DNA from: Bradymonadia bacterium
Lineage (GTDB): Bacteria; Myxococcota_A; Bradymonadia; UBA7976; UBA1532
Assembly: GCA_049318805.1 (NCBI GenBank)
Contig: JBMOFP010000002.1
Span: forward strand, 9,273 to 73,272
DNA: 64,000 nt
Direction: 5' to 3'
Notes under the pieces: generated by a model
The model's database searches: none
Told to the model about the DNA's origin: nothing
The model's input: the letters and a program-made list of their open reading frames with translations, nothing else
Position numbers and translations under genes: made by a program
In this document: positions 2,007-37,295 of the stretch, piece after piece
Layout of the letters: each line of letters begins with the position of its first letter
Position numbering within the stretch: the first letter of the stretch is position 1

Positions 2007-2089
2007 GCGGATTCGGGGCGCCTGAAGTCTGACAGTTGACCGACGCGAGATTGACGGTTCGCCGTCCCAGTCAGAGAAGGATCGAGACG

Positions 2090-5721: not shown

Positions 5722-5831
5722 GTCGGACCTTCGTCCCAGCAAGCGGGATGCCGAGGTCGGGCGTGAAACAATGTGCGCCCCGGGTCGATTCCTGCTATGA
5801 CACGCCGCTTTCGAATCGACCGGAGGAAATC

Positions 5832-6532: not shown

Positions 6533-6654
6533 GGTCGTTTCCAGTTGCGCGGCATCGTGGCACAGGGCCCCGAGGGGGACAAGGGGACGTCGGGGAGCGT
6601 TGACGTCCGACGGGAGGGCGGGCGAAGTAGTGCTCGATTGGAGCGGAGAGCGGC

Positions 6655-8931
<2,277 letters not shown>

Positions 8932-8941
8932 GGAGCAGAGC

Positions 8942-9781: not shown

Positions 9782-9782
9782 G

Positions 9783-12580: not shown

Positions 12581-12583
12581 GGC

Positions 12584-13389: not shown

Positions 13390-13416
13390 CCTGAACGCAA
13401 CGGAACGAGAGGCGCG

Positions 13417-14601: not shown

Positions 14602-14620
14602 TCGACCCACACCCCTAAGG

Positions 14621-15457: not shown

Positions 15458-15476
15458 CGACCTCTCCCGGATTTGG

Positions 15477-17393: not shown

Positions 17394-17728
17394 CCGGTGA
17401 GGGTCGCCTCGAGGCTGTTCGGCGTCAGCGTGGGGTCGAGCCGGCGCACACTCGTGGCGTCCGATCGACTCTCGGGGTGCACGTCGTAGATACGACAGGC
17501 CGACCCTCGAAGGCGCGCCGACATCACGAAGTCGTCGACGCTCATCTCGTCGACCGTCTCACAGAAGACGACGGCGTCGATGGGGGCGCCGTCGAGCGCT
17601 TCAAGACAGTGCAGGGGAGTCCCTGCGTCGACCGGGCTGACGCAGCGCATCATGCCGAGCCGGTGCACCCACTCGGCGCGCTCACTCGCACTCGAACCCG
17701 TCACGAGCAGTCGTATCGCGGTCTTCAT
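17390..17728 (-). CDS. hypothetical protein (possible degenerate receiver-like fold)
   Basis: 112-aa ORF whose stop overlaps the kynBU start. No clear motif. Confidence 0.3.
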
Positions 17729-17781: not shown

Positions 17782-18843
17782 TCAGCGGCTACCCACCCAG
17801 GGGATCGTGAACGCGCCGCGCTCAGGCCCTGCGCCGACGACCGAGAAGCAGACCCGGTCACCCGCCCGGACAGTCTCAGACGCGACGTCGTCGGAGAGCA
17901 GGCAGAGCGTGCTGGCCGTGACGACGTTCCCGATGCGCTGTGCGTGGGTGGGCGCGAACTCGGGCCCCAGCCCCATCGTCTGGAGCGTCTTCGCGACCAG
18001 GCCGGGGCTCGCCTGGTGGGTGTACAGACGTCGGAACGTGCGCGTCAGCTCGGGCTCGGTCTCGAGCAGCGCTTGATGGTTCAGGCGCATGCCCTCGGTG
18101 TAGTACTTCAGCACCGCGTCGCCATCCATGGAGAACGCCGCCAGAGTCGTCGCGCTCGGTGTGCCCGGCGGGTGCTCGGCGCCGCCCCCGCGGAACTCGA
18201 CGAGCGGGTTGTCGAAGCCCGGTTCGTCGCCAAAGCTGTGGGTGTCTCGGGCGTAGAGCCAGTGGCCGGTCGTGTCGTCGGTTCGCTCGAGCACGACCGC
18301 GGCGGCGGCGTCCGAGAACAGCGCGGGCGAGTACCACAGCGTCTTGCCGCGCGGGTGCATGGGGTTGTCCCGGTAGATCTCGTTCGGTCCGCCGAGGTGG
18401 TCCAACATGTACCGGCTGGTGGCGTTGAAGGCCACGACCAGGGTCCGACGTGCGTTCGAACGCGCCGCGGTGGCGAACGTCCGCGCAAGGCCCCCGCATC
18501 CCGCCTGCAGCAGCGTGCTCGGCACGTCGTCGGGCAGACCGAGCCCGCGCGCGACCTCGAAGGCGTCTTGATTGAGGTGCAGCTGGAACGGCGTGCACGT
18601 GACCACGACGCAGGCGTCGACGTCGTCCGGGCCGAGACCGGCCGCCTCGAGCGCGCGCCGACCCACGTCGATGGCGGGTTCGAGTGAGCTGAAGCGGGTG
18701 GGGGACCACGCCTTCGATTGAATGCCGAGTCGCGTCGCGACCGCGTTGCCATCCAGGTACATGCCGGGCTTGCCGCGGTCCGGGATACACGCCCACTCCG
18801 CCCACGTACCGATGGGGATGATCTGACCGAGCTCGCTCGCCAC
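17782..18843 (-). CDS. 3-oxoacyl-ACP synthase III family (FabH/PqsD/OleA-like) condensing enzyme
   Basis: GTG start (VASELGQII). Cys-His-Asn triad context LLQAGCGGL, LYTHQAS, IGNVVTAST. Has an insertion relative to housekeeping FabH (HPRGKTLWYSP). Confidence 0.7.
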   Translation of the reverse strand: MASELGQIIPIGTWAEWACIPDRGKPGMYLDGNAVATRLGIQSKAWSPTRFSSLEPAIDVGRRALEAAGLGPDDVDACVVVTCTPFQLHLNQDAFEVARGLGLPDDVPSTLLQAGCGGLARTFATAARSNARRTLVVAFNATSRYMLDHLGGPNEIYRDNPMHPRGKTLWYSPALFSDAAAAVVLERTDDTTGHWLYARDTHSFGDEPGFDNPLVEFRGGGAEHPPGTPSATTLAAFSMDGDAVLKYYTEGMRLNHQALLETEPELTRTFRRLYTHQASPGLVAKTLQTMGLGPEFAPTHAQRIGNVVTASTLCLLSDDVASETVRAGDRVCFSVVGAGPERGAFTIPWVGSR

Positions 18844-18969
18844 TGCGCGAAGAACGAGTGAATGAGGCTTCAGACTTGGACCCCTCGGCCGTGCGCTCCC
18901 CCGAGCACCCGCGGCGAAGTCATCATCCGCCGACCCCTCAGGCAACGCGCAGCGGTCGGAAGAGTCCCT

Positions 18970-22193: not shown

Positions 22194-24158
22194 TCAGAGG
22201 CTACGGCCGAGCCGTTCCGCGTCCGCGACCGCCTCGAGGATCGTCGCCGGGTGCCGCGCGTCGCCCAGGAGCACGACGTGGCCGTCGGCGGCCAGCGCCG
22301 CCCAGTCGGTCGGCGCCCGAACGCCGACCGCCACCACCACATGGTCGACCGCGGGCAACGTCTCGGCGGGCCGCCCGCGCCGGTCGACGAGCTGGACGCC
22401 GTCCGGTCCGATTGAACCGAGCGTCCGGCTCGTGTGCACTGAGATGCCGGCCGCTTCGAGACGCGCCTGGAGCAGGGTGCGCACGCTGCTCGGCAATCCG
22501 AGACCCATCTTCGGTCGCTGCTCGACCAGGCTGACCCGGGTGATCGCGGCGCGTGCGCCGAGGGCATCGGCGACCTCGCAGCCCTCCGGCCCGCCCCCGA
22601 GCACGAGCACATGCCCCGAGAGGGCGTCGTTCCCCAGGGCGGCCTCCGGATGCGACACCGCGCCCGCGTGGTCCAGCCCGGGCACGTGCGGCGTCGGTGC
22701 GGGCACGGCGCCGATCGCGACGATGACCTGGTCGTAGCCGGCGGACCAGGCGGCGAAGTCCGCCGGGTGAAGCGGGCGCGAGGTCTCGAGCACTACGCCG
22801 GCGGATTCGGCGTCTCGCACGAGCCACGCCGCATACTCCGCGAAGGTCTCCTTCATCGGCGGCGCCGCGCTCGCCCAGACCTTGCCCCCCGCTCGCACGG
22901 AGGCTTCGGCCACCGTGACGTCATGGCCTCGCCGCGCCAGCCGAGTTGCGCAGGTCAGGCCCGCCGGGCCCCCGCCCACGACGAGCACACGCAGGCGCTT
23001 CGACACCGGCGCGTCCAGCTCGGCGACACGACCGACCTGCGGGTTGACGAGGCAGCGCACGCCGCCGACGGTCACGGACTCCGCGCATCGGTTGCACGCC
23101 ACGCAAGGCCGCACGGCCTCAGGCTGGCCCTCCAGAAGGTGACGCGGCAGATCGGGGTCGGCGATCAGCGCCCGGCCGAACGCGACCAGGTCCGCGTTGC
23201 CCTCGGCCAGCGCACGCTCCGCGACCTCGGGACGTCGAAACCGCCCGACGGCCACCACGGGCACACGCACGCCCCGCGCATGCAGGCCGTGTCGGACCTG
23301 CGCGGCCAGGTCGGCGTAGGTTGCCTCGGCCAGGTAGTACGAGGGCATGTTGTACCGGTAGCTCTCGTAGTTGCACGCGCTCACCGAGAGCGCGTCCGCG
23401 CCCGCGAGCACGAGGCGGTGCGCATACTCGAGGGCCAGGGGCACGGTGATGCCGCCTTCGACGCGTTCGTCGGCGCTGAGCCTGCACTGGAGCGGGAACG
23501 CCGGTCCCACGAGCGCACGGGCGCGGCGGACCACCTCCGTCGCGAAACGCACCCGCCCGTCCAGGTCTCCGCCCCAGCGATCGTCCCGGAAGTTCGAGTA
23601 GGGGCTCAAAAACTGGCACACGAGGTAACCGTGGGCCATGTGGAACTCGACCCCGTCGGCCCCGCTGTCTCGCGCACGCAAAGCGGCGGCGGCGAACGCC
23701 TCCAGCGCCTCCTCGACGTCGGCCTCGTCCATCGCACGGGGCGGGTCGCGCATCACGGGGCAAGGCACGGCGCTCGCCGACACCGGCTGCCCTCCGGCGA
23801 ACTGCGAGACCGTTTGGCGACCTGCGTGGGAGAGCTGCACGAACAGGCGTCCGCCCACCGCATGGACGGCGCTGGCCAGGCCGGCGAACGCCTCGGTGTG
23901 GCGGTCCGAGGTCAACGTCGCCATCCACGGGCTCAGCCGACCCCGCGGATGCACGGCGACGTTGCCCGTGATGACGAGACCCGCGCCCCCGGCCGCGCGG
24001 AGCGCATAGTGCGAGACCATCGCCGGTGTCGGGAGGCCCTCGGCGTCCGCGAGGGACGGATCCATGGCGGGCATGACGATGCGGTTCGGCAGGGTCAGTG
24101 GACCGACCTGGAGCGGCGAGAACAGGTGCGGCCATCGAACGCGGCCGAGCTCCGTCAA
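22194..24158 (-). CDS. 2,4-dienoyl-CoA reductase (FadH)-type flavoenzyme: OYE TIM barrel plus FAD/NAD(P) Rossmann domain; candidate enoyl/dienoyl reductase of the FAS-like operon
   Basis: N-terminus [24 protein letters not shown] aligns to the FadH N-terminus. [25 protein letters not shown] (OYE). CVACNRC 4Fe-4S-like Cys cluster. [14 protein letters not shown] site and second [12 protein letters not shown](P) site. TTG 24158 overlaps the fabG stop; ATG at MPAMD is an alternative start. The 921-aa track ORF upstream of this point is an artefact. Confidence 0.65.
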
Positions 24159-24886
24159 AGCGAGACTCCGCCGTCGACCGCGAGCACCTGCCCTGTGACG
24201 TAGGTGGCGTCGGGTCCGAGCAAAAACGCGACGACCCCGGCGACCTCGTCGGCCCGCCCGTAGCGCCGCATCGGGATCCCCGCGAGGATCTCCTTGCCCG
24301 CCGCCTCTCGCACTCGGGCGCTCATTTCGGTCTCGATGAGGCCGGGCGCGACGGCGTTGACGGTGATCTTCTTCGGTGCGAGCTCGACGGCGAGCGCGCG
24401 GGTCAGAGCCTCGAGACCGCCCTTGCTCGCGGCGTAGTTCGCCTGGCCCCGATTGGGCCGGCGCGCCGCGGTGCTGCTGACGTTCACGATCCGCCCCGAC
24501 CGTCGCATCAGCATGTGCCGCGCGGCCGCCCGACTCAGCCAGAAGGCGGCGTCGAGGTTCGTGCGCAGCGTCTGGTGCCACTCCTCGTCCGTCATGGTGA
24601 GGGCCAGGTTGTCGGCCGTGACCCCCGCGTTGTTCACCAGCGCGTCGATGCCGCCAAAGTGTGTCACACACGCCTCGACACAGGCCGCGGCTGCGGACGC
24701 GTCCGCGACGTCCGCGGCGTGGAGGGCCACGACCGCCCCGAGGGCCTCGCACGCTGCGCGGACCTCCTGGGCCTCGGCCTCGCGACTGCGGTAGACCAGC
24801 AGGAGCCGGGCGTCGGGCGTGCGCGCGAGGCGCTCGGCGATGGCGCGTCCGATGCCACGACTGGCGCCGGTGACGAGGGTGATCAT
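24155..24886 (-). CDS. fabG: 3-oxoacyl-ACP reductase
   Basis: SDR with [16 protein letters not shown], catalytic YAASKGG. 243 aa. Confidence 0.85.
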
Positions 24887-26139
24887 CGTTCAATCTCCAG
24901 GGCGAGCATCGCGGTTTGCCCTCCGAGGCCGGCGGCATGAACGATGCCCCGGCGGCCACTCACCTCTCGAGGGGTGCCTTTGACCAGGTCGAGGCCACGG
25001 CAAGGGGCATCGACTTCGTCCAGACCACCGACGGGCGGAATCCGCCCGGCGCGCATCCCGACCAGGAGCGCCGCGGTCGACAGCGCGCCGGCCGCGGCGA
25101 GGGCGTGTCCGAGCTGCCCCTTGTCGGCGGCGATCACGGGTGAGCGGCCCCCAAAGACACGGCCGAAGACCTCGGACTCCACCCGGTCGAAGAGCGGGTT
25201 CGCGTTCCCGTGGGCTTGCACCACGTCGACCGACTCCGGCGCCCAGTCGGCGACCTCGAGCGCGCGCCTCAGCGCGGCCTCGACCGCGGTCGGATCGGCG
25301 CCGCTCAAGCCCCTGAGACCGGTCGCGGTGCCATACCCGCAGACCCGCGCCAGCACACGGGCGCCGCGGCTCCGCGCGACCTCCTCGCGCTCGAGGACAA
25401 AAAAGGCGGCGCCCTCCCCGGGCACGAAGCCGTCGTGGCGCGCGTCGAAGGGGCGTGTGTGGCCGGCGTTGGACAGCACCCCGAGGCGTCCGAAGCCGGT
25501 GAAGTGCTCCGGATTGACGGCGCTGTCGGCGCCCCCGGCGATGAGCACGTCCGCGCGACCCTCGGCGAGGGCCCATGCGGCCTCGCCCAGCGCCTGAAGC
25601 GCGCCCACCCCCGTGTTGCAGTAGTTCTGGTTGATGCCGCGGGCGTCGTGCTGGGCGCTGGCGTACCCCAGCACGTTGTTGGACAAGCCCTTGAGGAGCC
25701 AAAGAGGGTTGACGATGGGCATGCCCTCCTGCGCGAAGCGGACGGGGTCCCAGCCGCCGTCCGCCCCGCGGCCCCGCTCGACGGCGGGCACCAGGTCGCC
25801 CAGCTCGCCGAAGGCGGTCCCCGCGCCGACAAAGAGGCCGAGTCGTTCCGGATCGACGCTCCCCGGGGGCAGCGCGGCGTCCTGGAGGGCGAGCTTGACC
25901 GCCGCGAGCCCGTAGAGCACGGCGGGGGTCATCAAACGCAGGTTCTTTCGGTTCTCCACCCACGCCTTCGGGTCGAAGTCGGGGACGGTGGCCGCCGCGG
26001 TGCACGGGAACGGCGAGGCCTCGAAACGCGTGACGGGACGTGCCGCGACCCGGCCCTCGAGGAGACCCGCGAGGAGCGTGTCGGCCGACTGGCCGAGTGG
26101 GCTCACGACTCCGAGACCCGTCAGCACGACGCCCTTCAT
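24883..26139 (-). CDS. beta-ketoacyl synthase family protein lacking the canonical active-site Cys (chain-length-factor/KS-beta-like)
   Basis: Starts [16 protein letters not shown] after GAGGAAAAACC. Segment [14 protein letters not shown] has Gly where FabF has Cys, with a Cys 3 residues upstream. His motifs retained ([20 protein letters not shown]). ATGA overlap with fabD. Confidence 0.7.
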
Positions 26140-27101
26140 GGTTTTTCCTCTGCCTGCGAAGGTGAATCGGAAGCGTCGAGCGCCCGGAGGAGTCCGTCGA
26201 GGTCGCTGGCCTCGTCGAAGCTCGCGACCTGCGCCCGGCGGGCGAGGCGCTTGACGTGGGTCAGGTTGCTTCGGCCCGGACCCAGGTGCCAGAAGCGGTC
26301 GATGCCGCGCTCGAGCATCTGCTCGAGGCTCTGGCGCCATCGCACCGCACCGACGACCTGGGCGACGAGTCGCGCGCGCACTGTGTCCGGTGCCGCGGCC
26401 ACGAGCCAGGCCGCGTCCACGTTGGCGACATAGTCCAGGGTGGCGGTGCGCATCTGGACCGCGCTCAGGGCGGCTTCCAGCTCGACGGCGGCCGGCGCGA
26501 GCATCCTCGAGTGGAACGGGGCCGACACCGCGAGCGGGGTGACGAGCGCGCCCTCGGCCTCCAGGCGCGCGCTCACGGTGTGGACCGTCGTCGCCTCTCC
26601 GCTGAGGACGACGAGACCCGGCGCGTTGTACGCGGCCACGTCGCAAACGCCGTCCGCAGCCGCGCACGCTGCTTCCACGACGGCCTCGTCGACGCGCTGA
26701 ACGGCGGCCATCGCGCCCACACCCTCCGCGACCGCCCGCTGCATCGCCTGCCCGCGCAAGCGGGTGAGTCGAACCGCGTCCGCCAGGTCGAGGACCTCGG
26801 CGGCCACCAACGCGCCGTACTCCCCCAGGGAGTGTCCGGCCACGACCGTGGGCCGGAAGCCGCGCGCCCGAAGGACCGCCCAGGCGGCGCAGGCCACGGT
26901 GAGCACGGCCGGCTGCGTGTTCTCCGTCTGCGTGAGCGTGCTCTCGGGGCCCTCGAAGATGAGCCGCGTCAGGTCGAAGCCCAGGGCGGCGTCGGCCGCT
27001 TCGAAGACGGCCCGGGCCTCGGGGAATCGGGCGTGGAGGACGCGGCCCATGCCCACGTACTGCGTTCCCTGGCCGGCGAAGAGCAGGGCCGTCGGCGTCA
27101 C
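26136..27101 (-). CDS. fabD: malonyl-CoA:ACP transacylase
   Basis: LLFAGQGTQYVGMG, GHSLGEY active-site Ser. GTG start overlapping the upstream stop. The first 69 residues of the track ORF are an artefact. Confidence 0.85.
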   Translation of the reverse strand: MTPTALLFAGQGTQYVGMGRVLHARFPEARAVFEAADAALGFDLTRLIFEGPESTLTQTENTQPAVLTVACAAWAVLRARGFRPTVVAGHSLGEYGALVAAEVLDLADAVRLTRLRGQAMQRAVAEGVGAMAAVQRVDEAVVEAACAAADGVCDVAAYNAPGLVVLSGEATTVHTVSARLEAEGALVTPLAVSAPFHSRMLAPAAVELEAALSAVQMRTATLDYVANVDAAWLVAAAPDTVRARLVAQVVGAVRWRQSLEQMLERGIDRFWHLGPGRSNLTHVKRLARRAQVASFDEASDLDGLLRALDASDSPSQAEEKP

Positions 27102-29350
27102 GCGAGCGCTCCGCGCGGATCGAGGCGTTCGGCCGAGGCGAGCAGCAGCACGGCGTTCTGCCCCCCGAATCCGAAAGAATTGCTCATGATCACATGAGGT
27201 TGCGACACGCGGCCCTCGGCCGGCACGAGGTCGACCTCGATGCGCGGGTCTGGATTCTCGAGCCCGACACCGGGGGGCAGACGCCCGCCACGCAGGGCCG
27301 CGACACACGCCAAGAGCTCGACCGCCCCGGCGGCGGCGATGGTGTGACCGACCTGGCCCTTCGTGCTGCTCACGGCGGGCCCGTGGGCCCCGAAGACCGC
27401 GCGAATCGCCGCGGCCTCGGTCACATCGTTCAAGGGGGTGCCCGTGCCGTGGGCGTTCACGTAGTCCACGTGTTCCGGTCGGACGTCGGCGTCCGTGAGC
27501 GCGCGATTCATGGCGAGCCGAGCGCCCAGGCCCTCGGGGTGGGGCGCCGTCACGTTGTGGGCATCGCCACTCGTGCCGTGACCCAGCAGGACGGCGAGCG
27601 GGGTGCGCCCTTCGGCCAGGACCCGGTCGAGGGGCTCGAGCACGTAGAAGGCGGCGCCCTCACCCATGACAAAGCCCGCGCGGGCGCGGTCGAAGGGGCG
27701 CGCGGCCCGAAAGGGATCGGTCTCGGCCGAGGTTGCGCCCAGGAGCATGAACGGCAGCAAGCCGAAGGGGTGGATCATGCTGTCGGCGCCGCCGGCGAGG
27801 GCGACGTCGACCTCGCCGCTGCGCACCCGGTCGACGGCGTGCCCGATCGCCGCGGCCGCAGCCGCGCACGCGCTGAAGTGGACGTCGAAGGGGCCCGTGA
27901 CGTCGAGGTGTCGACGCAGGGCGCGCAGGGGGGCGGTCACGGCGTGGCGCCTCGGGGCCTGGGCCGAAGCACGCAGACCGGCCCTCGCGAACGCGGCGTA
28001 GTCGAAGCGACCGTCGTCTCCGAGAAACGGCAGGCAGTCCTCGGAGAGCTCGCGCAGGCTCACGCTCGAGAGGCCGGTGCCGTAGGCGATCGCGGTGTCG
28101 GTCGGGAGCGGGCGCCCGCGGGACACCACCGCGTCCAGCGCAGCCGCCAGGGCCAGCGCGCCCTTCCGGTCGTCCAGGCCCACGACGCTCTCGTGGAGCG
28201 CCTCGGGCAGTGCCGCGAGCAGCGCAGCGGTGGAGGTCTCGATTTCACAGGCGAGGCGGGTGGGGAACGGCGTCGCGTCGAAGGCCCGGATCGGGGCGAC
28301 GGCCGAAGAGCCCCCAAGGACGCGGGTCGAGAACGCCTCGAGTGTATGCCCGAGGGGCGTCCGCAGACCGATGCCCGTGATGGCGACGACGCGGCGTGGC
28401 GTGCCGCGGACGTGGGCCACGGGCGCGGCGACGCGCGCGGAGGACGAGGCGCCTTCGTCCAACCAGCGCACCCCGAGCCGGTCGGGCTGGGGCCCTGCGA
28501 GAAGCACCAGCAGCGCGTCGGGCGTGCCACACGAGATCCCCTGGAGCGGCTTCGCGGTGTTCGTCGCCTTGGCCGGTCGCTCATCATCAAGGGTCACGTG
28601 GCCGCGCACCCGCGCGCCCCGCGCCGCGGCCAGTTCAGCCGTCTCGAGCACAAAAAAAACGGCGGCCTCGGAGATCGGTCCGGGGCACCCCTCGCGCAGC
28701 GCGGTGACCCTTCCGGCGAAGTCGAGGTGGGCATCCGCGGCCCCCACGAGGCACATCGTCGCGCGACCCGTTTCCAGGGTGCGAACGGCCTCGGCCAGGG
28801 CCCCCAGGCCCGCGGCGGCGTCGTCCGTCAGGGTCATGCCGGGACCGCGTAACCCCAGCGTGATGCCGACGTGCGCGAAGGTCATGTTCGGCAGCGTCTT
28901 GATCGACGCCAGCGGATTCATCCGGTGCATGCCCACGCCGGCGAGGTGGCTGAGCGAGACATGGGTCGGGTCGTCCTCGGACCGCGCGTGGGCCAACGCG
29001 TCGCGCACGTCGTCGAGGTTGCCGGGCTCGCGGCCGGCCGCGACGAAGAGCCCGGCACCCTCGAGGCGCGGGTCGTCCTCGGTGAGGCCCGCGTCGGCCA
29101 CGGCGCGGCGCGCGGCCGCGACCGCGAGCACGTTCGCCCGCGCCATCAAGCGGACGTCCTTGCGGCGCCGAACCGACGCTTCCGGATCGGGCCCGGGCGC
29201 AAGGGGTACGGCCGGGAACGGCGCGCCCGGCCAGTCCGCGACGTCCAGCGCGCGCGCGGCGGGGGGCGCGAGGGCGAGCGCCGCTCGGAAGGTCTCGAGG
29301 TCGTGCCCCCAGGGGGAGACGAGCCCGACCCCTGTGACGACGATGCTCAC
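27098..29350 (-). CDS. two-domain condensing enzyme: N-terminal degenerate KS-like domain (no Cys, no His motifs) fused to C-terminal complete beta-ketoacyl synthase (KAS I/II type)
   Basis: GTG start VSIVVTGVGLVSP overlapping the KAS II stop. Domain 1 has GLRGPGMTLTDDAAAG where FabF has GLRGPSISIATACTSG (Cys to Ala), and lacks HGTGT/GH. Domain 2 (from VVAITGIGLRTPLG) has FSACAAAAAAIGHA, NAHGTGTPLND, GQVGHTIAAAG, NSFGFGGQN. No stop between domains. Confidence 0.65.
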   Translation of the reverse strand: MSIVVTGVGLVSPWGHDLETFRAALALAPPAARALDVADWPGAPFPAVPLAPGPDPEASVRRRKDVRLMARANVLAVAAARRAVADAGLTEDDPRLEGAGLFVAAGREPGNLDDVRDALAHARSEDDPTHVSLSHLAGVGMHRMNPLASIKTLPNMTFAHVGITLGLRGPGMTLTDDAAAGLGALAEAVRTLETGRATMCLVGAADAHLDFAGRVTALREGCPGPISEAAVFFVLETAELAAARGARVRGHVTLDDERPAKATNTAKPLQGISCGTPDALLVLLAGPQPDRLGVRWLDEGASSSARVAAPVAHVRGTPRRVVAITGIGLRTPLGHTLEAFSTRVLGGSSAVAPIRAFDATPFPTRLACEIETSTAALLAALPEALHESVVGLDDRKGALALAAALDAVVSRGRPLPTDTAIAYGTGLSSVSLRELSEDCLPFLGDDGRFDYAAFARAGLRASAQAPRRHAVTAPLRALRRHLDVTGPFDVHFSACAAAAAAIGHAVDRVRSGEVDVALAGGADSMIHPFGLLPFMLLGATSAETDPFRAARPFDRARAGFVMGEGAAFYVLEPLDRVLAEGRTPLAVLLGHGTSGDAHNVTAPHPEGLGARLAMNRALTDADVRPEHVDYVNAHGTGTPLNDVTEAAAIRAVFGAHGPAVSSTKGQVGHTIAAAGAVELLACVAALRGGRLPPGVGLENPDPRIEVDLVPAEGRVSQPHVIMSNSFGFGGQNAVLLLASAERLDPRGALA

Positions 29351-30627
29351 GCTTCCCAGCGACCGACGGCCAACGTCCCGTTGCTGCCGCCGAAGCCGAA
29401 CGCGTTGGTCAGCGCCAGACGTACGTCCACGGCGCGGGCCTCTCCGGGCACGTAGTCCAGGTCGCAGAGCGGGTCCGCATGTCGCAGATTCAGGGTCGGG
29501 GGCACGACGCCGTGCCGGATGGCCTGAATGCACGCGATGAGCTCGACCGCGCCGCACGCCGCGACGAGGTGACCCATCATGGACTTCGTCGACGAGACGG
29601 CGACCCGGTAGGCATGGTCGCCCAAGGCCCCCTTGATGCCCGCGGTCTCCGAGATGTCGTTCTGCTGGGTGCTGGTGCCGTGGGCGTTGATGTAGCTCAC
29701 GTCCTCCGGGCGCGCCCCGGCGTCCCACAGCGCCATCTGCATGGACTGGCGGGCTCCACGGCCGTCCGGGGGGCTGTCGGTGATGCGCCACGCGTTCGCG
29801 GAGCAGCCGTAACCCAGCAACTCCGCGTGGATGCGGGCGCCGCGGGCCAGGGCGTGCTCGAGGCGCTCGAGGACCACGAAGCCGGCCCCTTCACCCAAAA
29901 CGAAGCCATCGCGTGTCCGGTCGAACGGCCTCGAGGCGCCCGCGGGGTCGTCGTTGCGGGTCGAGAGCGCGCCGAGCAGGCCGAAGCCCGTCAGCATGAG
30001 CTCCTCGACGAGTCGGTCCGTGCCCCCGGCGAGCATGACGTCCGCATCCCCGCGTCGCAGCACGCGGAGCGCGTCGCCGATGGACTGCGCGCTGCTGGTG
30101 CACGCGGTGCTCGTCGTGAGGTTCGGGCCCGAGGCGCCGTGCAGGTGGGCGACCAGCGTCGCGGGGAAAAACGGCCCCATGACCAGGAAGTCCTTGGGGT
30201 CGACGGCGGAGTAAGCCTCGGCCGGGGTGCCGCGGGCGAAGTCGGCGAGGCGCTCGGACACGGTCTGGAGGTCGGGTCGAGAGGCCTCCGCACCTACGGA
30301 GACGCCGAAGCGGAGCGGGTTGAGGTCCCCGCGCGCAAGCCCGGCGTCCGCCATGGCTTCCGCGGCGGAGACCGCGGCGAGGGTCGACTTCGGATCGGAC
30401 CACCGCGCGTAGCGCCCCGGCAGCTCCAGGGTCGGCAGCGCGGCGACCTCGGCGGCGAAACGCGTGGGGAAACCCGAGGCGTCGAAACGTGTCACCGGAC
30501 CCACGGCGGACCGCCCCGCGACCAGGCCGGCCCAGGTGCTCTCGACCGTGCCCCCGAGCGGGGTGACGCAGCCCAGCCCGGTCACGACCACCCGTGCGCG
30601 ACCGTGTGCGTCGACCTGCCGACTCAT
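29347..30627 (-). CDS. fabF: beta-ketoacyl-ACP synthase II
   Basis: RVVVTGLGCVTPLG, active site TSTACTSS, NAHGTSTQQND, SMMGHLVAACG, NAFGFGGSN. ATG 30627 overlaps the fabZ-like stop. Confidence 0.8.
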   Translation of the reverse strand: MSRQVDAHGRARVVVTGLGCVTPLGGTVESTWAGLVAGRSAVGPVTRFDASGFPTRFAAEVAALPTLELPGRYARWSDPKSTLAAVSAAEAMADAGLARGDLNPLRFGVSVGAEASRPDLQTVSERLADFARGTPAEAYSAVDPKDFLVMGPFFPATLVAHLHGASGPNLTTSTACTSSAQSIGDALRVLRRGDADVMLAGGTDRLVEELMLTGFGLLGALSTRNDDPAGASRPFDRTRDGFVLGEGAGFVVLERLEHALARGARIHAELLGYGCSANAWRITDSPPDGRGARQSMQMALWDAGARPEDVSYINAHGTSTQQNDISETAGIKGALGDHAYRVAVSSTKSMMGHLVAACGAVELIACIQAIRHGVVPPTLNLRHADPLCDLDYVPGEARAVDVRLALTNAFGFGGSNGTLAVGRWEA

Positions 30628-31166
30628 GGTGCGGGGCCTCCTCGGGTGGCGGCATCCCAGGCCGCGTAGCCTGGCCACAGCAGGCGAAGATTCTCGCGCT
30701 CGAGGCGCTCCAGTCGTTCCTGAGCCTCGCGTGTGTCCAGATCACCCGGGTTGAAAACGAAGACGAGCTCCGCCTCCGTGGTGATCTTGCCCTCGAGTCT
30801 CGCCTCGGCTTTGCAAATGGCGGATTCGTCGCGCAGCTCGACCAGCCGGGTCTCCAAGGAAAGGAGGTGCCCGGGCGCCACGAAGCGCCGGAACTTCGCC
30901 TTCTTCACGATGCTGATGATCGGCCAGACCCAGCGCCCCTGGCGCTCGAAGACCGTCACCTCGATCAGCTTGCCCGAGGTCTGCGCCAGCGCCTCGATTT
31001 GCAAGACGCCCGGCAAAACCGGGAAGCCCGGGAAGTGGTCCGCGAAGAAGTCCTCGCTCGACGCGACGGCTTTGTGCCCGACGGCCCGTTCGCCCGGCTG
31101 GAGTTCAGAGATACGGTCGAGGAAGGCCCAGCGCATGACGGCGGAACTTAGAACTTCATCGGGCAC
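30624..31166 (-). CDS. fabZ: 3-hydroxyacyl-ACP dehydratase, FabZ-type hotdog
   Basis: FLDRISEL..GERAVGHKAV..EDFFADHFPGFPVLPGVLQIEALAQ matches the FabZ His/Glu active-site motif. First gene of the minus-strand operon. GTG start. Confidence 0.75.
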   Translation of the reverse strand: MPDEVLSSAVMRWAFLDRISELQPGERAVGHKAVASSEDFFADHFPGFPVLPGVLQIEALAQTSGKLIEVTVFERQGRWVWPIISIVKKAKFRRFVAPGHLLSLETRLVELRDESAICKAEARLEGKITTEAELVFVFNPGDLDTREAQERLERLERENLRLLWPGYAAWDAATRGGPAP

Positions 31167-32082: not shown

Positions 32083-33285
32083 TCAGGCCCGACGTCGACC
32101 GGCTTCGACGATTCGCCCCTTCCACACGGCGCCGCGCCCAGACCCGATGCGCCACGCGCTGTTCCAAAAGAGCGCCAGGACGACGGCCATGCCGAGGGGG
32201 AACGTCCAGAAGAGCCCCCAACGGTACCCGTGTCGGGCGTGACCGAAGGCGTCCGTGGCGAAAATCAGGAGCACGGCGAGGGCCTCGAGTCCCAGAAAGA
32301 GCGGCTCGAAGGGCGCCCCGACGGCCCAGCGGGTCGCGTTGCGCGCCAGTAGCAAGAAGGGCAGCAAGCTCGAGGCGAAGAGCAGCGCCGTGACGACGAG
32401 CGTGGCGACGAAGCTGTAGGAGAGCGCCGGAAAGAGGTTCTTCGTCCAGCCGTTCCAGATCTCCTTGAAACCCGTGTACATCCGGCACTCGAAGACCGAC
32501 GGGCCGAAGTAGAGACGGTAGGGGACGCGCTGAGCTTTCGCGCGCTTCGCGAAGTCCACGTCGTCGAGCACGCTCCCCCGGATCGCTTCGTGTCCCCCGA
32601 GGCGATCGTAGGCCTCTCGGCGAAAGAGCAGACACTGGCCGTTCGCCAGGGCGCGTTCGTGGTCGGGGTCGTTCACCTCGTGCAACGGATTGCCACCGGC
32701 GATCACGGCCCCGATGCGTGTCTGAACGACCCGCTCCCAGAAGGACGCCACCACCAGCCGACCCAGCGCGCTGGCCATCTCGGCGCCCTGTGCCTGGGTG
32801 CGCGCGATGAGCGCTCGGGCGCCGTCGGGTGCGAGCCGCACGTCCGCATCGATGAAGAGCAACCAAGCGCCACGCGCGTGGGATTGAGCAAGGTGGAGGG
32901 CGTGCGGCTTGCCGAGCCAGCCCTCCGGCGGGTCGACCCCGTCGATGACGCGGACGCGTGCATCCGCGGCGGCGAGTGTCGCGAGCACCGCCCCGGTGCC
33001 ATCCGTGGAGCGGTCGTCCACGACCACGACCTCGAGCGCCCCGGGCCACCGGGTCGCCAGGGCGGCCTCGACACACCCCCGGATGTTCGCCGCTTCGTTG
33101 CGGGCGGGGATGATGATCGACAACACGCCGGGATCGTCGGGGAGGGGGTCGAGCGGGACCCCGCGGTTGAGGGTGTACTCGGGCGGGTTGTCCTGGCCAC
33201 GGAGGAGTCCGACCAGGCTGCGCGCCCAGGCGAGGTCCAGCAAAATGAGGCCCGCGGCCCCACCCCAGAAGGCGTAGTCCGTCAT
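32083..33285 (-). CDS. family 2 glycosyltransferase with C-terminal transmembrane region
   Basis: GT-A motifs SIIIPARNEA, VVVVDDRSTDGT, DADV. Four C-terminal hydrophobic helices. Confidence 0.75.
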   Translation of the reverse strand: MTDYAFWGGAAGLILLDLAWARSLVGLLRGQDNPPEYTLNRGVPLDPLPDDPGVLSIIIPARNEAANIRGCVEAALATRWPGALEVVVVDDRSTDGTGAVLATLAAADARVRVIDGVDPPEGWLGKPHALHLAQSHARGAWLLFIDADVRLAPDGARALIARTQAQGAEMASALGRLVVASFWERVVQTRIGAVIAGGNPLHEVNDPDHERALANGQCLLFRREAYDRLGGHEAIRGSVLDDVDFAKRAKAQRVPYRLYFGPSVFECRMYTGFKEIWNGWTKNLFPALSYSFVATLVVTALLFASSLLPFLLLARNATRWAVGAPFEPLFLGLEALAVLLIFATDAFGHARHGYRWGLFWTFPLGMAVVLALFWNSAWRIGSGRGAVWKGRIVEAGRRRA

Positions 33286-33437
33286 GAGGACCGCAGCCTA
33301 ACAGCATCCCGCACGCGCGTTCTCTCTGAACGCGCGCGGGGCTGGTTTACTGGGATTTCGCTCCTATCGTAAGGTCCGCGGATTACCGCCCGGTGACGGG
33401 CGGGTCACGGGTTGAGTTCCGGGGAGACGAGGTCACG

Positions 33438-36400
33438 ATGTTTTCGATTCGTTGGGGATTGCAGGCGGCTCTGACCGCCGCGCTGCTGAGCGCGTGCGGT
33501 GGAGACGAAGGTGGTGACGGCACGGGGACGGGCGGCACCGGCGGAGGCGGCGGCAACGTCGGCGGCACGCCGGGTGGCACGATCCCCGATTCAGGCATCG
33601 AGCCCGATGTCGGGGAGATCCCCGACGCCGCGCCGCTCCTCCCGCCGTGCAGCGACACACGCGACAATGACGGCGACGGCCTCATCGACGACGCGGACCC
33701 GGGATGCGAAAACCCCGCGGACCGGGACGAGACCGACCCCGCGGCACCTGCGGCGTGTTCGAACTCGAACGACGACGACCAGGACGGCTACACCGACTTC
33801 CCCGCGGACCCGGGCTGCGGCTCCGAGTTCGACGACAACGAGGCGAACCCGGCCATCGACCCGCTCTGCAACGACGGCATCGACAACGATCGCGACGGCC
33901 TGGTCGACGAGCAGGATCCGGGCTGCACGAGCGTCGCCGACCCGCAGGAGCAGGACCCGGCGGAGCGACCCGCGTGCGCCAATGGCCTCGACGACGACAA
34001 CGACGGCGTCGTGGACTTCCCCGCCGAGCCCGGCTGCCGCACGGCCGGCGACACCGAAGAGGACGACCCGCCGCAGCCGCCGGATTGCGCCAACGGCAAC
34101 GACGACGACGAGGACGGCCTGGTCGACTACCCGGACGATCCGGGGTGCGCCGGCGGCGGCGACACGGATGAGACGGACAAGCCGGTCCGGCCCGCGTGCG
34201 CCGACGGCGTCGACAACGACCGCGACGGCAAGACCGACTACCCCGACGACGACGGCTGCGTCGCCGCGGCGGACTACAGCGAGCGCGGGAGCTGCGGCAA
34301 TACCTACGACCCGGCGTCCATCCTGCGCGACGTGCCATTCCTGACGGACATCAGCGGCGGGCTCTTCGAGAGCGAGGGTTCGTGCGGCGGCCGCGGAAGC
34401 CCCGAGGTCGTGCTCCAGTACCGCCTCGAACGGCGCGTGGAGCGGCTCGTGATCTCGACGGTCGGCGAGGCCACGCAGATCCCCACGACGCTCTACGTGC
34501 GCCGCGGTGCCTGCCTGGACGAGGACACCGAGGTCGGCTGCCAGCGGGAGAACGAGAACGCCGAGACCTTCGGCAACACACTCGAGATCGCGGAGCCGGA
34601 GCCGGGCGACTACTACATCTTCGTCGACGGTGTGGCGGGTGCCGGTGGTCCCGTTCAGGTCACCGTGTCCGAGCTGGACCTCGCGCAGTGTCTGAACGGC
34701 ATCGACGACGACGGCAACGGCCGCGTCGATTTCCCTTCCGATCCGGGATGTTCGGAGCCTCAGGACCGCGATGAGACCCCGCCGGACGTCATCCCCGCGT
34801 GCGCCAACGACGAGGACGACGACGGCGACGGCGCCGTGGACTACCCGCTGGACTTCGGGTGCATCTCCGCGGCCGGCAACGACGAGACCGATCGCTGTGG
34901 CCAGGGGGTGCGCTACCAGGAGTTCCCCAACGACCGCGAGTTCGTGCTCGGAGACACCTCGGACGGCACGAACAGCCTACGGGGAAGCTGCGGCGGGGCG
35001 AACACGCCCGAGGTCATCTACCGCTACATCAACCCCTTCGCGTCGCGCTTGACCTTCAGCACCAACCACCCCGAGACGGAGGTCTCGACGGTGCTCCACG
35101 TGCGCCGCGCGTGCGATGGGGCGAATACCGAGCTGGCCGCGCCCGCGGGGTGCAGCACCGGTGATGGCGTCGCGATGCGCGGGCGCCTGACGATCGACCG
35201 AGCGGCCGTAGGGGAGTACTGGGTCGTCGTCGATACCCGCCAGGGCGAGGGCGGGCCGTTCAAGCTCTCCGTCGAGGTCCGCCGCCTCGACCCGGGCTGT
35301 GTGAACGGCCGGGACGACGACGAGGACGGCGCGATCGACGGCGACGACCCCGGCTGTGAAGGTCCGGCCGACGAGGACGAGGCGGATCCGCCCCGTGGCG
35401 CGCCACTCGCCGCGTGCAACAACGGCGACGACGACGATGAAGATGGCCTGCCCGACTTCCCCTACGACCCGGGCTGCGCCGCCCGCGGGGACGCCGACGA
35501 GGCCGACGGTGAGGTGCTCGGGGCCTGCGCCAACGGGCTCGACGACGACGACGACAACCGCATCGACTTCCCGGTCGACCCGGGGTGCCAGTCGCGGGGC
35601 GACGACAACGAACGCAACCCGGTTCCGCCGCCGCAGTGTGGCGACTCCATCGACAACGACAACGACGGCGTCACCGATTACCCGAATGATCCCGGGTGCT
35701 TCGCCGCTGGAGACCCGAGTGAGGACGACCCCGCGATCGACCCCGTTTGCGCGAACGGCGTCGACGACGACCGCGACGGCGTCGCCGACTTCCCCTTCGA
35801 TCCCGGGTGCATCGCGTCCTCGTGGATCGACGAGTCCGACCCCGACGTGCCTCCGGTCTGCTCGAATGGCATGGACGACGACGAGGACGGCTTCCCCGAC
35901 TTCCCGCGGGACTACGGCTGCACCTACGCCGCCGATCCGAGCGAGGTCGGCGCCGCGTTCGCGCCGCAGTGCGGCAACCGCCGGGACGACGACAACGACG
36001 CGCGCATCGACTTCCCGGACGACCCGGGCTGCCGCTTCGCGGCCGACAACGACGAGGTGAACCCGGGCCAGCTCCCGCCGCGCTGCAACGACGGCGTGGA
36101 CAACGACTTCGACGGGTCCCTCGACTTCCGGGACCTCGGGTGCCTCGACGCCGAGGACGACGACGAGACCGACCCCGCCGAGGTGCCGTTGTGCGGGAAC
36201 GAAATCGACGACGACGCAGACGGCTTCCTCGACTGGCCGCTCGATCCGGGCTGCCAGGCGCGGGGCGACCTCACCGAGGACCAGGGTTGCCGACCGGACG
36301 TGGACACGCCGCTCATCGTGGCCGGCGAGACAGTCCTCGGCGCGACCGTGGCCGACGGTGCCGACAACTACTTCAACCGCTGTGGCGGTCGGCGGGCGCC

Positions 36401-37295
36401 GGACGCCGCCTATCGCTACGTCGTCGAAGAGGCGGGGGATGTGACCTTCAGCGTCGCGAACCCGGGCACCGACTTCCCGGCCGTCCTCTCGGTCCGCTCG
36501 GACTGTGAGGAGCCCAGCACGCTCATCGATTGCGCGGGCAACTTCGCCCGGCCGGAGCCGACCGTGACCCTGCGGAACGCCGAGCCCGGCGAGTACTTCG
36601 TCTTCGTCGACGGCGGCGGCCCCGAGCGCATCGTCTCGCGCCAGGCGCCGGTGCCGATGCCCATCGACCCGCGCGGCTTCGTGCCCGACCAGGGCATCCA
36701 GGACGGCTGCGGTTGGGGCGACGCCGGCAACGACGCCTTCGACTGCTTCGGCGGCTCCATCACGATGAACTTCGGCGGTGCGGCGGCCATGATCAGCCCG
36801 GCGCTCGGCACCCGCGCGGTCAACGCCGGGGCCTACCGTGCGAACTTCACCAGCGAGTTCGGCGGCCAGGTCTGGCGCCTGCGCTTCGACCCGGCCGAGG
36901 AGTTCGACGAGCGTCCGGTCACCATCACCCTCGGGGGCAACCTCGGGAGCGACGGCGGCACCCAGGGCGCCGTCTCGCCCATCGACTTCGAGGGCTACGG
37001 GCTCAACTACATGCGCACGACCGACGGCGGCCAGTTCGATCCTCCGGTCGTGCACCTGGTGGTGCCGTCCGATCCGCAGGAGCAGGGCGCGGTGAACTAC
37101 GGCCGTGTCGGTGACCAGGTCACCATCACGGTCACGAACGTGAAGCTGCCGGTCGTGATGTACTTCGCGCCGAGCTACGCGGACGAAGCCGGCGTGGTGA
37201 ACGCGCTGCTGCGCGACCTCGAGCTCCAGGCCGGCCCGGCGGGCCCCGACGCCCCCCGCTTCGGCAACTACGAACTGACCGTCCAGGCGAATTGA
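33438..37295 (+). CDS. giant lipoprotein with about 24 Cys-bounded thrombospondin-type-3-like acidic Ca-binding repeats and three inserted beta domains
   Basis: ATG 33438 after GGAGACGAGG. Lipobox LLSAC. Repeating unit CxNGxDDDxDGxxD[FY]PxDPGC. Three about 140-aa insertions, each with GSCGG..PEV..YR..E[PA]G.Y. Confidence 0.7.
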   Translation: MFSIRWGLQAALTAALLSACGGDEGGDGTGTGGTGGGGGNVGGTPGGTIPDSGIEPDVGEIPDAAPLLPPCSDTRDNDGDGLIDDADPGCENPADRDETDPAAPAACSNSNDDDQDGYTDFPADPGCGSEFDDNEANPAIDPLCNDGIDNDRDGLVDEQDPGCTSVADPQEQDPAERPACANGLDDDNDGVVDFPAEPGCRTAGDTEEDDPPQPPDCANGNDDDEDGLVDYPDDPGCAGGGDTDETDKPVRPACADGVDNDRDGKTDYPDDDGCVAAADYSERGSCGNTYDPASILRDVPFLTDISGGLFESEGSCGGRGSPEVVLQYRLERRVERLVISTVGEATQIPTTLYVRRGACLDEDTEVGCQRENENAETFGNTLEIAEPEPGDYYIFVDGVAGAGGPVQVTVSELDLAQCLNGIDDDGNGRVDFPSDPGCSEPQDRDETPPDVIPACANDEDDDGDGAVDYPLDFGCISAAGNDETDRCGQGVRYQEFPNDREFVLGDTSDGTNSLRGSCGGANTPEVIYRYINPFASRLTFSTNHPETEVSTVLHVRRACDGANTELAAPAGCSTGDGVAMRGRLTIDRAAVGEYWVVVDTRQGEGGPFKLSVEVRRLDPGCVNGRDDDEDGAIDGDDPGCEGPADEDEADPPRGAPLAACNNGDDDDEDGLPDFPYDPGCAARGDADEADGEVLGACANGLDDDDDNRIDFPVDPGCQSRGDDNERNPVPPPQCGDSIDNDNDGVTDYPNDPGCFAAGDPSEDDPAIDPVCANGVDDDRDGVADFPFDPGCIASSWIDESDPDVPPVCSNGMDDDEDGFPDFPRDYGCTYAADPSEVGAAFAPQCGNRRDDDNDARIDFPDDPGCRFAADNDEVNPGQLPPRCNDGVDNDFDGSLDFRDLGCLDAEDDDETDPAEVPLCGNEIDDDADGFLDWPLDPGCQARGDLTEDQGCRPDVDTPLIVAGETVLGATVADGADNYFNRCGGRRAPDAAYRYVVEEAGDVTFSVANPGTDFPAVLSVRSDCEEPSTLIDCAGNFARPEPTVTLRNAEPGEYFVFVDGGGPERIVSRQAPVPMPIDPRGFVPDQGIQDGCGWGDAGNDAFDCFGGSITMNFGGAAAMISPALGTRAVNAGAYRANFTSEFGGQVWRLRFDPAEEFDERPVTITLGGNLGSDGGTQGAVSPIDFEGYGLNYMRTTDGGQFDPPVVHLVVPSDPQEQGAVNYGRVGDQVTITVTNVKLPVVMYFAPSYADEAGVVNALLRDLELQAGPAGPDAPRFGNYELTVQAN

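Follow-up and report, generated by a model that had tools for sequence, protein, structure and literature searches.

The operon and its neighbours

The window, by which we mean the whole 64,000-nucleotide stretch of Bradymonadia DNA that was analysed, harbours an operon of seven translationally coupled genes, the fifth of which encodes a 418-residue ketosynthase (KS) homologue lacking the catalytic Cys and named KS* in this report. The operon runs in the order dehydratase, KS1, half-KS~KS2 fusion, acyltransferase, KS*, ketoreductase and FadH/OYE reductase. It contains three KS genes, which between them encode four KS-type domains. The genes and their conserved neighbours are as follows.

30624..31136, minus strand: FabZ/ApeI-like dehydratase, first gene (Pfam, PDB and family searches)
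29347..30627, minus strand: KS1, canonical FabF-like ketosynthase with TACTSS, HGTST, GH and GFGG motifs (PRK07314, 447 bits, cut-off 387)
27098..29350, minus strand: 750-residue fusion of a half-size KS-like N-domain with canonical KS2 (Cys, His, His; domain and BLASTP comparisons)
26136..27101, minus strand: FabD-type malonyl-CoA:ACP transacylase (AT; TIGR00128, 263.8 bits, cut-off 260.9), its stop overlapping the KS* start (ATGA)
24883..26139, minus strand: KS* (PF00109 and PF02801; translation; AF2 model with FabF-like fold, pLDDT 95.9)
24155..24886, minus strand: FabG-type ketoreductase (KR; FabG/FlxB-like in NCBIfam), its start overlapping the KS* stop (ATGA)
22194..24158, minus strand: FadH/OYE-type flavin reductase (2,4-dienoyl-CoA reductase architecture), last gene, found in some related loci only
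32083..33285, minus strand: membrane GT2 glycosyltransferase (HpnB/CruG-like), conserved upstream neighbour
33393..37295, plus strand: 1300-residue lipoprotein, conserved divergent neighbour with no Pfam domain

This order is kept in about 20 Myxococcota/Bradymonadia metagenome-assembled genomes (MAGs), with variants in more distant relatives. The operon is known from metagenomic sequences only, those with a taxonomic label belonging to uncultured Myxococcota/Bradymonadia, and our literature searches returned no description of it or of the KS* lineage. In the window, as in most loci, KS2 and KS* are separated by the AT gene, and the order AT-KS*-KR recurs in the distant relatives L026, L028, L030 and L031. 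Five related loci lack the AT and have KS* immediately after KS2. Two others lack it too: L027, in which KS* again comes directly after KS2, and the minimal cluster L029, in which a KS1-like gene overlaps by 1 nt with a downstream KS*-like gene whose second catalytic His is missing as well. The half-KS domain of the fusion lacks a C-terminal half and carries Asp at the position of the Cys; in L030 and L031 it forms a separate gene.

No FabH is conserved across the operon loci, and the operon contains neither an HMGS nor an ECH gene; an ECH at 8870-9781 of the window is part of an unrelated acyl-CoA gene group. Searches for an ACP gene in the window and 20 loci (tblastn with E. coli AcpP; Pfam scan of the window ORFs) were negative; an ACP was found only in the outgroup locus L031, 0.6 kb downstream of the KR. 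The first-pass annotation, made from the sequence of the window, had taken the gene to point away from ordinary fatty acid synthesis, and the setting agrees: this is a dedicated multi-KS operon and not a standard fab operon.

Overall architecture of KS*

KS* starts at an ATG at 26139, with GAGGA in front, and stops at a TGA at 24885-24883. A longer ORF with a GTG start, reaching 26667, was rejected as a high-GC artefact because the orthologues begin at the same Met. The protein is full size, with both thiolase halves of the KS fold present. In HMMER comparisons with solved structures it scores highest with FabF (190.5 bits), followed by the actinorhodin KS-alpha (144.9) and the actinorhodin chain-length factor (CLF; 1tqy_B, 133.8). 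Against the FabF/KAS II model TIGR03150 it reaches 250.5 bits, well under the curated equivalog cut-off of 493.75, and no NCBIfam model reaches its own cut-off with KS*. A housekeeping FabF was rejected on this score and on the lack of a Cys in the nucleophile column. The residues and loops that bear on its chemistry are listed from the N-terminal side.

25600..25632, minus strand: remodelled nucleophilic elbow, Asn170 to residue 180, family consensus NQNYCNSGVGG (family alignment and AF2)
25618..25620, minus strand: TGC codon of Cys174, the displaced Cys, three residues upstream of Gly177 and kept almost throughout the family
25609..25611, minus strand: GGG codon of Gly177, in the catalytic-Cys column (HMMER, BLASTP and MAFFT alignments; family column)
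25285..25329, minus strand: equivalent of gating loop 2 (DAYHxTxPxPxG in canonical KSs), which is degenerate, unconserved and two residues shorter (alignment; loop definition from PMC9006962)
25210..25212, minus strand: His310, first catalytic His (AHGN), in 66/66 of the family
25105..25122, minus strand: Lys340 to His345 (KGQLGH), catalytic Lys and second His, both in 66/66
24919..24930, minus strand: gating loop 1, Gly404-Leu405-Gly406-Gly407, with Leu in place of the gate/oxyanion-hole Phe of the canonical GFGG (family alignment)

Loss of the nucleophile and conservation of the decarboxylation site

Four independent alignments (by HMMER to solved FabF structures, by BLASTP to the two canonical KSs of the operon, and by MAFFT) place Gly177 under the catalytic Cys, with no gap needed between the flanking RG and AGGA anchors. 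The substitution was already proposed in the first-pass annotation, together with a Cys three residues to the N-terminal side and two retained catalytic His residues; all three observations stand, the Cys being Cys174 and the His residues His310 and His345, to which Lys340 can be added. Across the KS* family (66 aligned members, 42-100% identity) the nucleophile column holds Gly in 49 sequences, Ala in 11, Pro in five and Ser in one, and never Cys or Gln. Since a GGG codon is two substitutions from a Cys codon and the column is never Cys, the missing nucleophile is real; sequencing error, chance and a pseudogene were rejected on this conservation. All 66 members share His310, His345, Lys340, Asp318 and Glu321, which count among 38 invariant columns; this favours retained chemistry over decay. 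Taken together, the alignments indicate that KS* derives from FabF and is a full-size ketosynthase paralogue in which the canonical acyl-enzyme is no longer possible and the malonyl-decarboxylation site is intact.

The strand leading into the active site is nearly as well conserved: Asn170 and Asn172 occur in 66/66 members, Tyr173 and Cys174 in 65, Gln171 in 64 and Asn175 in 60, and by alignment the NQNYCNSGVGG elbow is specific to the KS* family. In the AF2 model of KS* the strand spans residues 170-174 and is followed by a loop (175-178) and a helix from 179, whereas in the model of KS1 from the same operon the strand spans 169-172 and the helix begins at 175, with the catalytic Cys176 one residue into it. 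The active-site helix of KS* thus begins three residues later, its first turn being replaced, in the predicted structure, by a glycine-rich loop. It had been considered that a gapped alignment might instead bring the Cys of the NYC motif into the elbow; AF2 secondary structure speaks against this, Cys174 being the last residue of the strand.

A profile search of 1.84 billion representatives gave a top list dominated by multi-KS megasynthases, and only a few single-domain relatives could be used. Of six more distant lineages, four have Cys at position 174 (NICNSG, NYCHSG, NICSGG); Ala (P0155) or Ser (P0072, P0129) stands there in sister lineages that share the Gly elbow and keep His-His intact, and canonical KSs have Thr, Val or Ala. 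In a neighbour-joining tree the KS* clade is separate from the other Cys-less KS homologues (E/D-type CLF-like sequences), and the family appears to be a conserved, independent and FabF-derived lineage.

The gates of acyl transfer have changed as well. Residue 405 is Leu in 58 members, Ile in seven and Val in one, and never Phe, which occupies the gate position in 30 of the 45 remaining KS homologues in the alignment (canonical KSs together with CLF-like sequences of the E/D type). Pro has no backbone NH, and its presence in the nucleophile column of 5/66 members therefore implies that the canonical oxyanion hole is not required family-wide. [quoted passage not shown] Judged from the alignments, both acyl-transfer gates are changed or lost in KS*.

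Comparison with known Cys-less ketosynthase homologues

Cys-less KS homologues (CLFs, KSQ and KS0 domains, and the decarboxylases of HMGS cassettes) govern the start and length of polyketide and fatty-acid chains. KS* represents a further such lineage, distinguished by a Gly/Ala/Pro/Ser replacement, a Gly-rich elbow, the loss of both gates and a nearly invariant neighbouring Cys. FabF (KAS II) is its closest relative among the systems compared here, from which it differs in the nucleophile column, in GLGG for GFGG, in the degenerate loop 2 and in its own elbow; the Cys-His-His triad is left incomplete, with His310 and His345 present and Gly177 in the Cys column.

The pattern of a lost Cys with retained His-His fits KSQ-type decarboxylases better than CLFs. 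KSQ loading domains (e.g., the KSQ of GfsA) likewise keep the His-His and Lys residues of decarboxylation, but they have Gln in the Cys column, Thr rather than the Asn of KS* after the first His, and an attached ACP, whereas KS* is free-standing. As to the KSQ-AT-ACP linkage, a FabD-type AT stands immediately upstream of KS* and is coupled to it in the window and most loci but is absent in five, and an ACP was found in L031 only. By analogy, KS* may resemble KSQ domains or chain-initiation factors in function; the "chain initiation factor" concept is said to go back to Bisang in 1999. The KS-like decarboxylases of HMGS beta-branching cassettes (PksF/CurC/MupG type), which make acetyl-ACP from malonyl-ACP, are also free-standing, full-size and Cys-less with His-His kept. 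They have Ser in place of the Cys and are encoded beside HMGS and ECH genes, unlike KS*, which has Gly (Ser in 1/66 of the family) and no such genes in its operon.

The first-pass annotation had described KS* as chain-length-factor-like. The part of that description concerning a lost nucleophile and a His-His(-Lys) decarboxylation site, which is kept by strong selection, holds; its placement with the CLFs of type II polyketide or aryl-polyene systems does not. Type II PKS CLFs (KS-beta) have Gln in the column, which is never found in the KS* family, and KS* is less similar to the actinorhodin CLF than to FabF or KS-alpha and forms its own clade; membership was rejected on these grounds. A CLF gene lies directly behind that of KS-alpha, whereas in the window the AT gene separates KS* from the other KS genes; a KS gene does stand directly upstream of KS* in the five AT-less loci, L027 and L029. 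The aryl-polyene CLF ApeC is half-size, keeping mostly the first thiolase half (PMC8358021), and such CLFs consequently have no His-His site. Systems with ApeC (and ApeO and ApeR) share with the KS* operon the ApeI-like dehydratase Pfam signature, several KSs and a GT2 neighbour. The ApeC-like element in this operon is the N-domain of the 750-residue fusion, half-size, Cys-less and beside a KS, and not full-size KS*. Membership in an aryl-polyene cluster was rejected because the half-KS, KS2 and the dehydratase retrieve FabF and FabZ, not ApeC, ApeO or ApeI, among solved structures; the operon KSs, half-KS and dehydratase are all FabF/FabZ-like in the PDB searches, and the comparison of the KR was confined to NCBIfam.

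Possible roles of KS*

Our best guess, for which we consider the chances about even, is that KS* is a putative malonyl-ACP decarboxylase and/or a non-condensing partner subunit. KS* would bind malonyl-ACP made by the neighbouring transacylase, on a carrier protein encoded elsewhere, and decarboxylate it to acetyl-ACP. It would initiate chains in the manner of KSQ domains, or of the decarboxylase function at one time suggested for CLF, and supply KS1 and KS2 with their starter, the operon having no conserved FabH. Additionally or instead, it could form the non-condensing half of a heterodimer with a canonical KS. A priming role is supported by the adjoining AT with its ATGA overlap, and by the combination of a lost nucleophile, invariant decarboxylation residues and two changed acyl-transfer gates. 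There is precedent in that Cys-to-Gln KSs and KSQ domains turn malonyl-ACP into acetyl starters (PMC9006962, among other sources) and in that bacterial fatty acid synthesis can start by KS-catalysed malonyl-ACP decarboxylation (PMC10869286).

Several observations weigh against decarboxylation. The near-invariant Cys174 has no explanation in a pure decarboxylase model, the AT is absent in five loci, L027 and L029, and no ACP gene was found in the window or the 20 loci. In the KS-derived decarboxylases known so far the Cys is replaced by Gln, or by Ser in the HMGS-cassette enzymes. In animal FAS, work attributed to Witkowski in 1999 reportedly saw a strong gain of decarboxylase activity with Gln replacement only and not with Gly, for which reason a bare Gly may not activate decarboxylation. 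A nearby conserved carboxamide (Asn175, Gln171 or Asn172) may substitute for Gln. KS* bears on whether KS-type malonyl decarboxylation really needs the Gln mimic.

A purely structural, CLF-like subunit, pairing with KS1 or KS2 to shape the acyl or polyene tunnel with no catalysis of its own, seems unlikely to us, although the position of KS* directly behind KS2 in the AT-less loci and L027 does look more like a KS-alpha/KS-beta pair, and the KS*-like member of the overlapping L029 pair lacks the second His. That role would leave the invariance of His310, His345, Lys340, Asp318 and Glu321 without explanation and would duplicate the half-size Cys-less domain already attached to KS2; moreover, Gln is never found in the nucleophile column and KS* is no nearer to CLFs than to FabF.

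It is decidedly improbable that the loss is only apparent and that KS* still condenses with Cys174 as nucleophile in a re-engineered site. The Cys is kept in 65/66 members and, outside the family, in four of the six distant lineages, its C-N-S-G context resembles the canonical C-[TSA]-[ST]-[GS], a three-residue deletion before it and a Gly-rich three-residue insertion after it would leave the length unchanged, and space above it could be freed if the first helical turn is unwound as predicted. However, Cys174 ends the strand in the AF2 model, five residues ahead of the helix, and so is without the helix-dipole position of a KS nucleophile. The entire NQNYCNS strand is just as invariant, and the conservation is therefore not Cys-specific; Ala or Ser replaces Cys174 in the sister lineages, the Thr, Val or Ala of canonical KSs fits a buried core position, and both acyl-transfer gates are gone. 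We give an equally low rating to the idea that Cys174, beneath the Gly-rich loop, takes over covalent catalysis or carries a second, deeper acyl site; if true, it would represent condensing or transfer chemistry unseen in characterised thiolase-fold enzymes.

There is a slim chance that KS* performs other thiolase-scaffold chemistry (acyl transfer, cyclisation or non-malonyl decarboxylation), as do the type II-PKS-like AmcF-AmcG enzymes. The unusually polar strand into the active site (N-Q-N-Y-C-N-S) and Gly-rich elbow would suit such a role, as would a weak, sub-threshold match to the cispentacin AmcF model (178.5 bits, cut-off 325), but KS1 and KS2 score higher on that model (217 and 208 bits), which makes the match generic, and the other genes of the operon make up an ordinary elongation cycle (AT, KR, DH, KSs). 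A decaying, non-functional paralogue, as the missing nucleophile and unconserved gating loop 2 might suggest, is very hard to credit given an ORF intact in every locus examined (42-76% identity), the 38 invariant columns with their His-His-Lys-Asp-Glu network, and translational coupling within a conserved operon.

The product of this uncharacterised operon would be a lipid or polyene, and the membrane GT2 neighbour suggests a glycolipid. The half-KS domain matches PRK06519, a sequence match that may hint at a link to the rhizobial VLCFA enzymes FabF2XL/FabF1XL.

A Cys-less ketosynthase in a seven-gene operon

KS*, a 418-aa ketosynthase (KS) homologue without the canonical Cys, is encoded on the minus strand from an ATG at 26139, with GAGGA ahead of it, to a TGA stop at 24885-24883; a longer GTG-initiated ORF is a high-GC artefact, since the orthologues begin at the same Met. 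Both ketosynthase domains are present (Pfam PF00109, 4.4e-33; PF02801, 1.7e-19), no NCBIfam model matches at its curated cut-off, and the best match, FabF TIGR03150, reaches 250.5 bits against a cut-off of 493.75. The gene is the fifth of seven on the minus strand, with a 4-nt overlap at every junction.

The KS* operon and its upstream neighbours
30624-31136 (-), gene 1, FabZ/ApeI-like dehydratase (DH)
29347-30627 (-), gene 2, canonical FabF-like ketosynthase (KS1)
27098-29350 (-), gene 3, 750-aa fusion (half~KS2)
26136-27101 (-), FabD-type transacylase (AT), slightly over the TIGR00128 cut-off
24883-26139 (-), KS*
24155-24886 (-), gene 6, FabG-type reductase (KR)
22194-24158 (-), gene 7 (terminal), FadH/OYE-type flavoenzyme, 2,4-dienoyl-CoA-reductase-like (OYE)
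32083-33285 (-), upstream, membrane GT2 glycosyltransferase, 4-TM, HpnB/CruG-related (lipid or carotenoid glycosylation)
33393-37295 (+), divergent upstream, 1300-aa lipoprotein with signal peptide and LSAC lipobox, no Pfam domain

The first ~250-310 residues of the fusion form a KS-like N-terminal thiolase half that carries Asp at the Cys position and lacks the His-bearing C-terminal half, and the rest is a canonical KS (KS2). The operon holds three KS genes with four KS-type domains, plus AT, KR and DH.

Among 185,579 species genomes scanned, 20 loci carry a related operon. All are in MAGs, whose labels are Myxococcota, Myxococcales, Nannocystaceae, Bradymonadia or only ‘bacterium’. By tblastn with the window proteins, all 20 have a common order: lipoprotein, GT2, DH, KS1, half~KS2, (AT), KS*, (KR), (OYE). 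AT is missing from five (L009, L012, L013, L017 and L025), KR from three (L006-L008), and OYE is found in only about half; a modular accessory set thus surrounds the core, DH-KS1-half~KS2-KS*. The glycosyltransferase and the lipoprotein, both conserved beside the operon, suggest a glycosylated envelope lipid as product. Searches for an ACP gene came up empty both in the window and, for the 20 related loci, within 10 kb of the operon.

Loss of the nucleophile and of the acyl-transfer gates

The first-pass annotation had read KS* as carrying Gly at the nucleophile position, a Cys three residues N-terminal to it and both catalytic His, and the alignments bear this out. HMMER alignment to solved FabF structures, gap-free between the RG and AGGA anchors, sets Gly177, whose GGG codon would need two substitutions to encode Cys, under the catalytic Cys; BLASTP against KS1 and KS2 gives the same placement (NYCNTG against TSTAC and HFSAC), as does MAFFT on 40-111 homologues. 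The adjoining Cys is Cys174, the catalytic His are His310 and His345, and Lys340, Asp318 and Glu321 are also in place.

A protein search returned about 65 close family members (42-100% identity), labelled, where their sources name a group, Myxococcota, Bradymonadia or plain ‘bacterium’. Across 66 sequences the Cys column holds Gly in 49, Ala in 11, Pro in five and Ser in one, never Cys or Gln. Cys174 is kept in 65 of the 66, within a conserved elbow strand (N170 and N172 in all 66, Q171 in 64, Y173 in 65, N175 in 60), and His310, His345, Lys340, Asp318 and Glu321 are invariant (66/66). These column counts argue that the nucleophile loss is an old, selected state and that strong constraint acts on the decarboxylation network.

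Ketosynthases are gated by loop 1 (GFGG) and loop 2 (DAYHMTSPPEN); the backbone amides of Cys163 and Phe400 form the oxyanion hole for transacylation; Phe400 bars malonyl entry before Cys acylation, an F-to-A change in the gate almost abolishes condensation, and Cys-to-Gln converts a KS into a malonyl decarboxylase (PMC9006962). At the gate Phe position the 66 family sequences have Leu (58), Ile (7) or Val (1), never Phe; the loop-2 counterpart is two residues shorter and shows no conservation; and the Pro in the Cys column of five members removes a backbone NH. The apparatus of the acyl-transfer half-reaction is thus dismantled, with the His-His-Lys set for the decarboxylation half-reaction retained.

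The puzzling feature of the lineage is Cys174, near-invariant yet displaced under a remodelled elbow, where it might act as nucleophile in a shifted register. We compared an AlphaFold model of KS* (111-sequence alignment, pLDDT 95.9) with one of the operon's canonical KS1 (pLDDT 94.8) as a like-for-like control. Taking the invariant Gly167 as reference, the KS1 model has a strand at 169-172 and a helix from 175, so that Cys176 is predicted in the first helical turn, as in a classical nucleophilic elbow. With Gly168 as reference, the KS* strand (170-174) ends on Cys174, residues 175-178 (N-T-G-V) form a loop and the helix starts at 179; in both models the active-site helix ends nine residues ahead of the AGG motif. 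With Cys174 predicted at a strand end, the assignment of Gly177 to the nucleophile column withstands the shifted-register reading at the level of secondary structure.

A wider clade of Gly-elbow relatives

More distant relatives with a single domain came from a profile search of 1.84 billion representatives; they have the Gly elbow and, with one exception, GLGG in common with KS*. In an NJ tree they form one clade, separate from canonical KSs and from an E/D-type CLF-like group (CLF, chain-length factor).

Elbows of the distant relatives
P0157, P0176: NICNSG, Cys at the Cys174 position
P0191: NYCHSG, Cys at the Cys174 position
P0263: NICSGG, Cys at the Cys174 position; second His lost; NFGG replaces GLGG
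P0155: NYANSG, Ala at the Cys174 position
P0072, P0129: NLSGSG, Ser at the Cys174 position

With Cys in most of these distant lineages and Ala or Ser in the others, the displaced Cys appears ancestral to the clade, yet it is dispensable in lineages that still have His-His.

Gene content of the distant loci
L031: DH, KS1, half-KS (separate 283-aa gene), KS2, AT, KS*, KR
L030: KS1, half-KS (394 aa), KS2, AT, KS*, KR
L026: AT, KS*, KR
L028: KS2, AT, KS*
L027: KS2, KS*
L029 (2158-6063): minimal, DH, KS1-like, KS*-like (P0263), KR

The half-KS of L030 and L031 is a gene of its own (283-394 aa) just upstream of a KS, and L031 is the only locus with an ACP, a PP-binding gene at 10687-11130, 0.6 kb downstream of KR. 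The KS*-like gene of L029 directly follows a KS with a 1-nt overlap, and its loss of the second His (GN for GH) is a more CLF-like state than that of the window KS*.

P0091 and the C-terminal half of P0128 represent a different Cys-less type (motif GPN(A/G)C(I/F)TNH(S/G)), which keeps His-His, has Ser/Gly in the Cys column and carries His at -1; in P0128 (878 aa) a canonical KS precedes it within the fused protein. FabF-like proteins thus include several independent lineages without the Cys.

Comparison with known systems and proposed role

KS* differs from FabF in lacking the Cys and scoring below the TIGR03150 cut-off, and from the decarboxylases of HMGS cassettes in having no Ser and no HMGS in its operon. 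An earlier CLF-like reading stands in that the nucleophile is lost with His-His kept and the gene belongs to a dedicated multi-KS operon, unlike a standard fab operon; it fails in that KS* lacks the Gln of type II PKS CLFs, does not group with them and is not half-size like ApeC, the aryl-polyene CLF. Aryl-polyene CLFs are half-size (PMC8358021), which suits the N-domain of the fusion rather than KS*; that half-KS recalls ApeC, although sequence searches match it to FabF and not to ApeC. Decarboxylating loading-type KSs (KSQ) have a Gln that KS* lacks and are domains, which KS* is not. By analogy, KS* would nevertheless function most like a KSQ or chain-initiation type, and is therefore classed among Cys-less KS homologues. 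Our literature search found no paper describing the lineage, and the operon is uncharacterised: KS* represents a clean, conserved, undescribed lineage, but a variation on the familiar Cys-less KS theme.

Given the observed nucleophile and gate loss, His-His-Lys retention, operon coupling and conservation, KS* is most likely a non-condensing, decarboxylation-competent KS paralogue. The neighbouring FabD-type enzyme would make malonyl-ACP and KS* would decarboxylate it to acetyl-ACP, the putative primer for KS1 and KS2 in an operon where no FabH is conserved. The substrate and partner of KS*, its activity as a decarboxylase and the product are all putative. To our knowledge, characterised KS-derived decarboxylases carry Gln or Ser, not Gly, and a Gly mutant of animal FAS was reportedly not activated as a decarboxylase, both of which count against this role, and it leaves the near-invariant Cys174 unexplained. 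We nonetheless prefer a KSQ-like or ‘chain-initiation-factor’-like role; a KS that decarboxylates malonyl-ACP is known to start bacterial FAS (PMC10869286). Such priming is compatible with KS* also serving as an inactive heterodimer subunit, as hinted by KS-KS* adjacency in AT-less loci.

Genomic surroundings

A FabH-like protein (17782-18945, -), whose sole Pfam match is to the C-terminal domain of KAS III, lies 3 kb past the operon, beyond a hybrid histidine kinase, and was not found beside the operon in other species. The operon adjoins a flagellar gene cluster across the MAGs L004 and L005, the P0063 contig and the window. The genes at the window start (flhA, flhF, a MinD/FleN-type ATPase and fliJ, at 3-4515 (+) and 5284-5829 (-)) directly flank the operon in the other three, and in the window an insert of about 17 kb, made up of other genes, separates cluster from operon. 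The inserted block at 6631-17558 encodes an enoyl-CoA hydratase, two acyl-CoA dehydrogenases, a 4HBT thioesterase, an FAD-monooxygenase~OYE fusion (6631-8931) with the domain pair of bifunctional salicylyl-CoA 5-hydroxylase/oxidoreductase, a tryptophan 2,3-dioxygenase (14621-15481) and a kynurenine-formamidase(cyclase)~kynureninase fusion (15477-17558).
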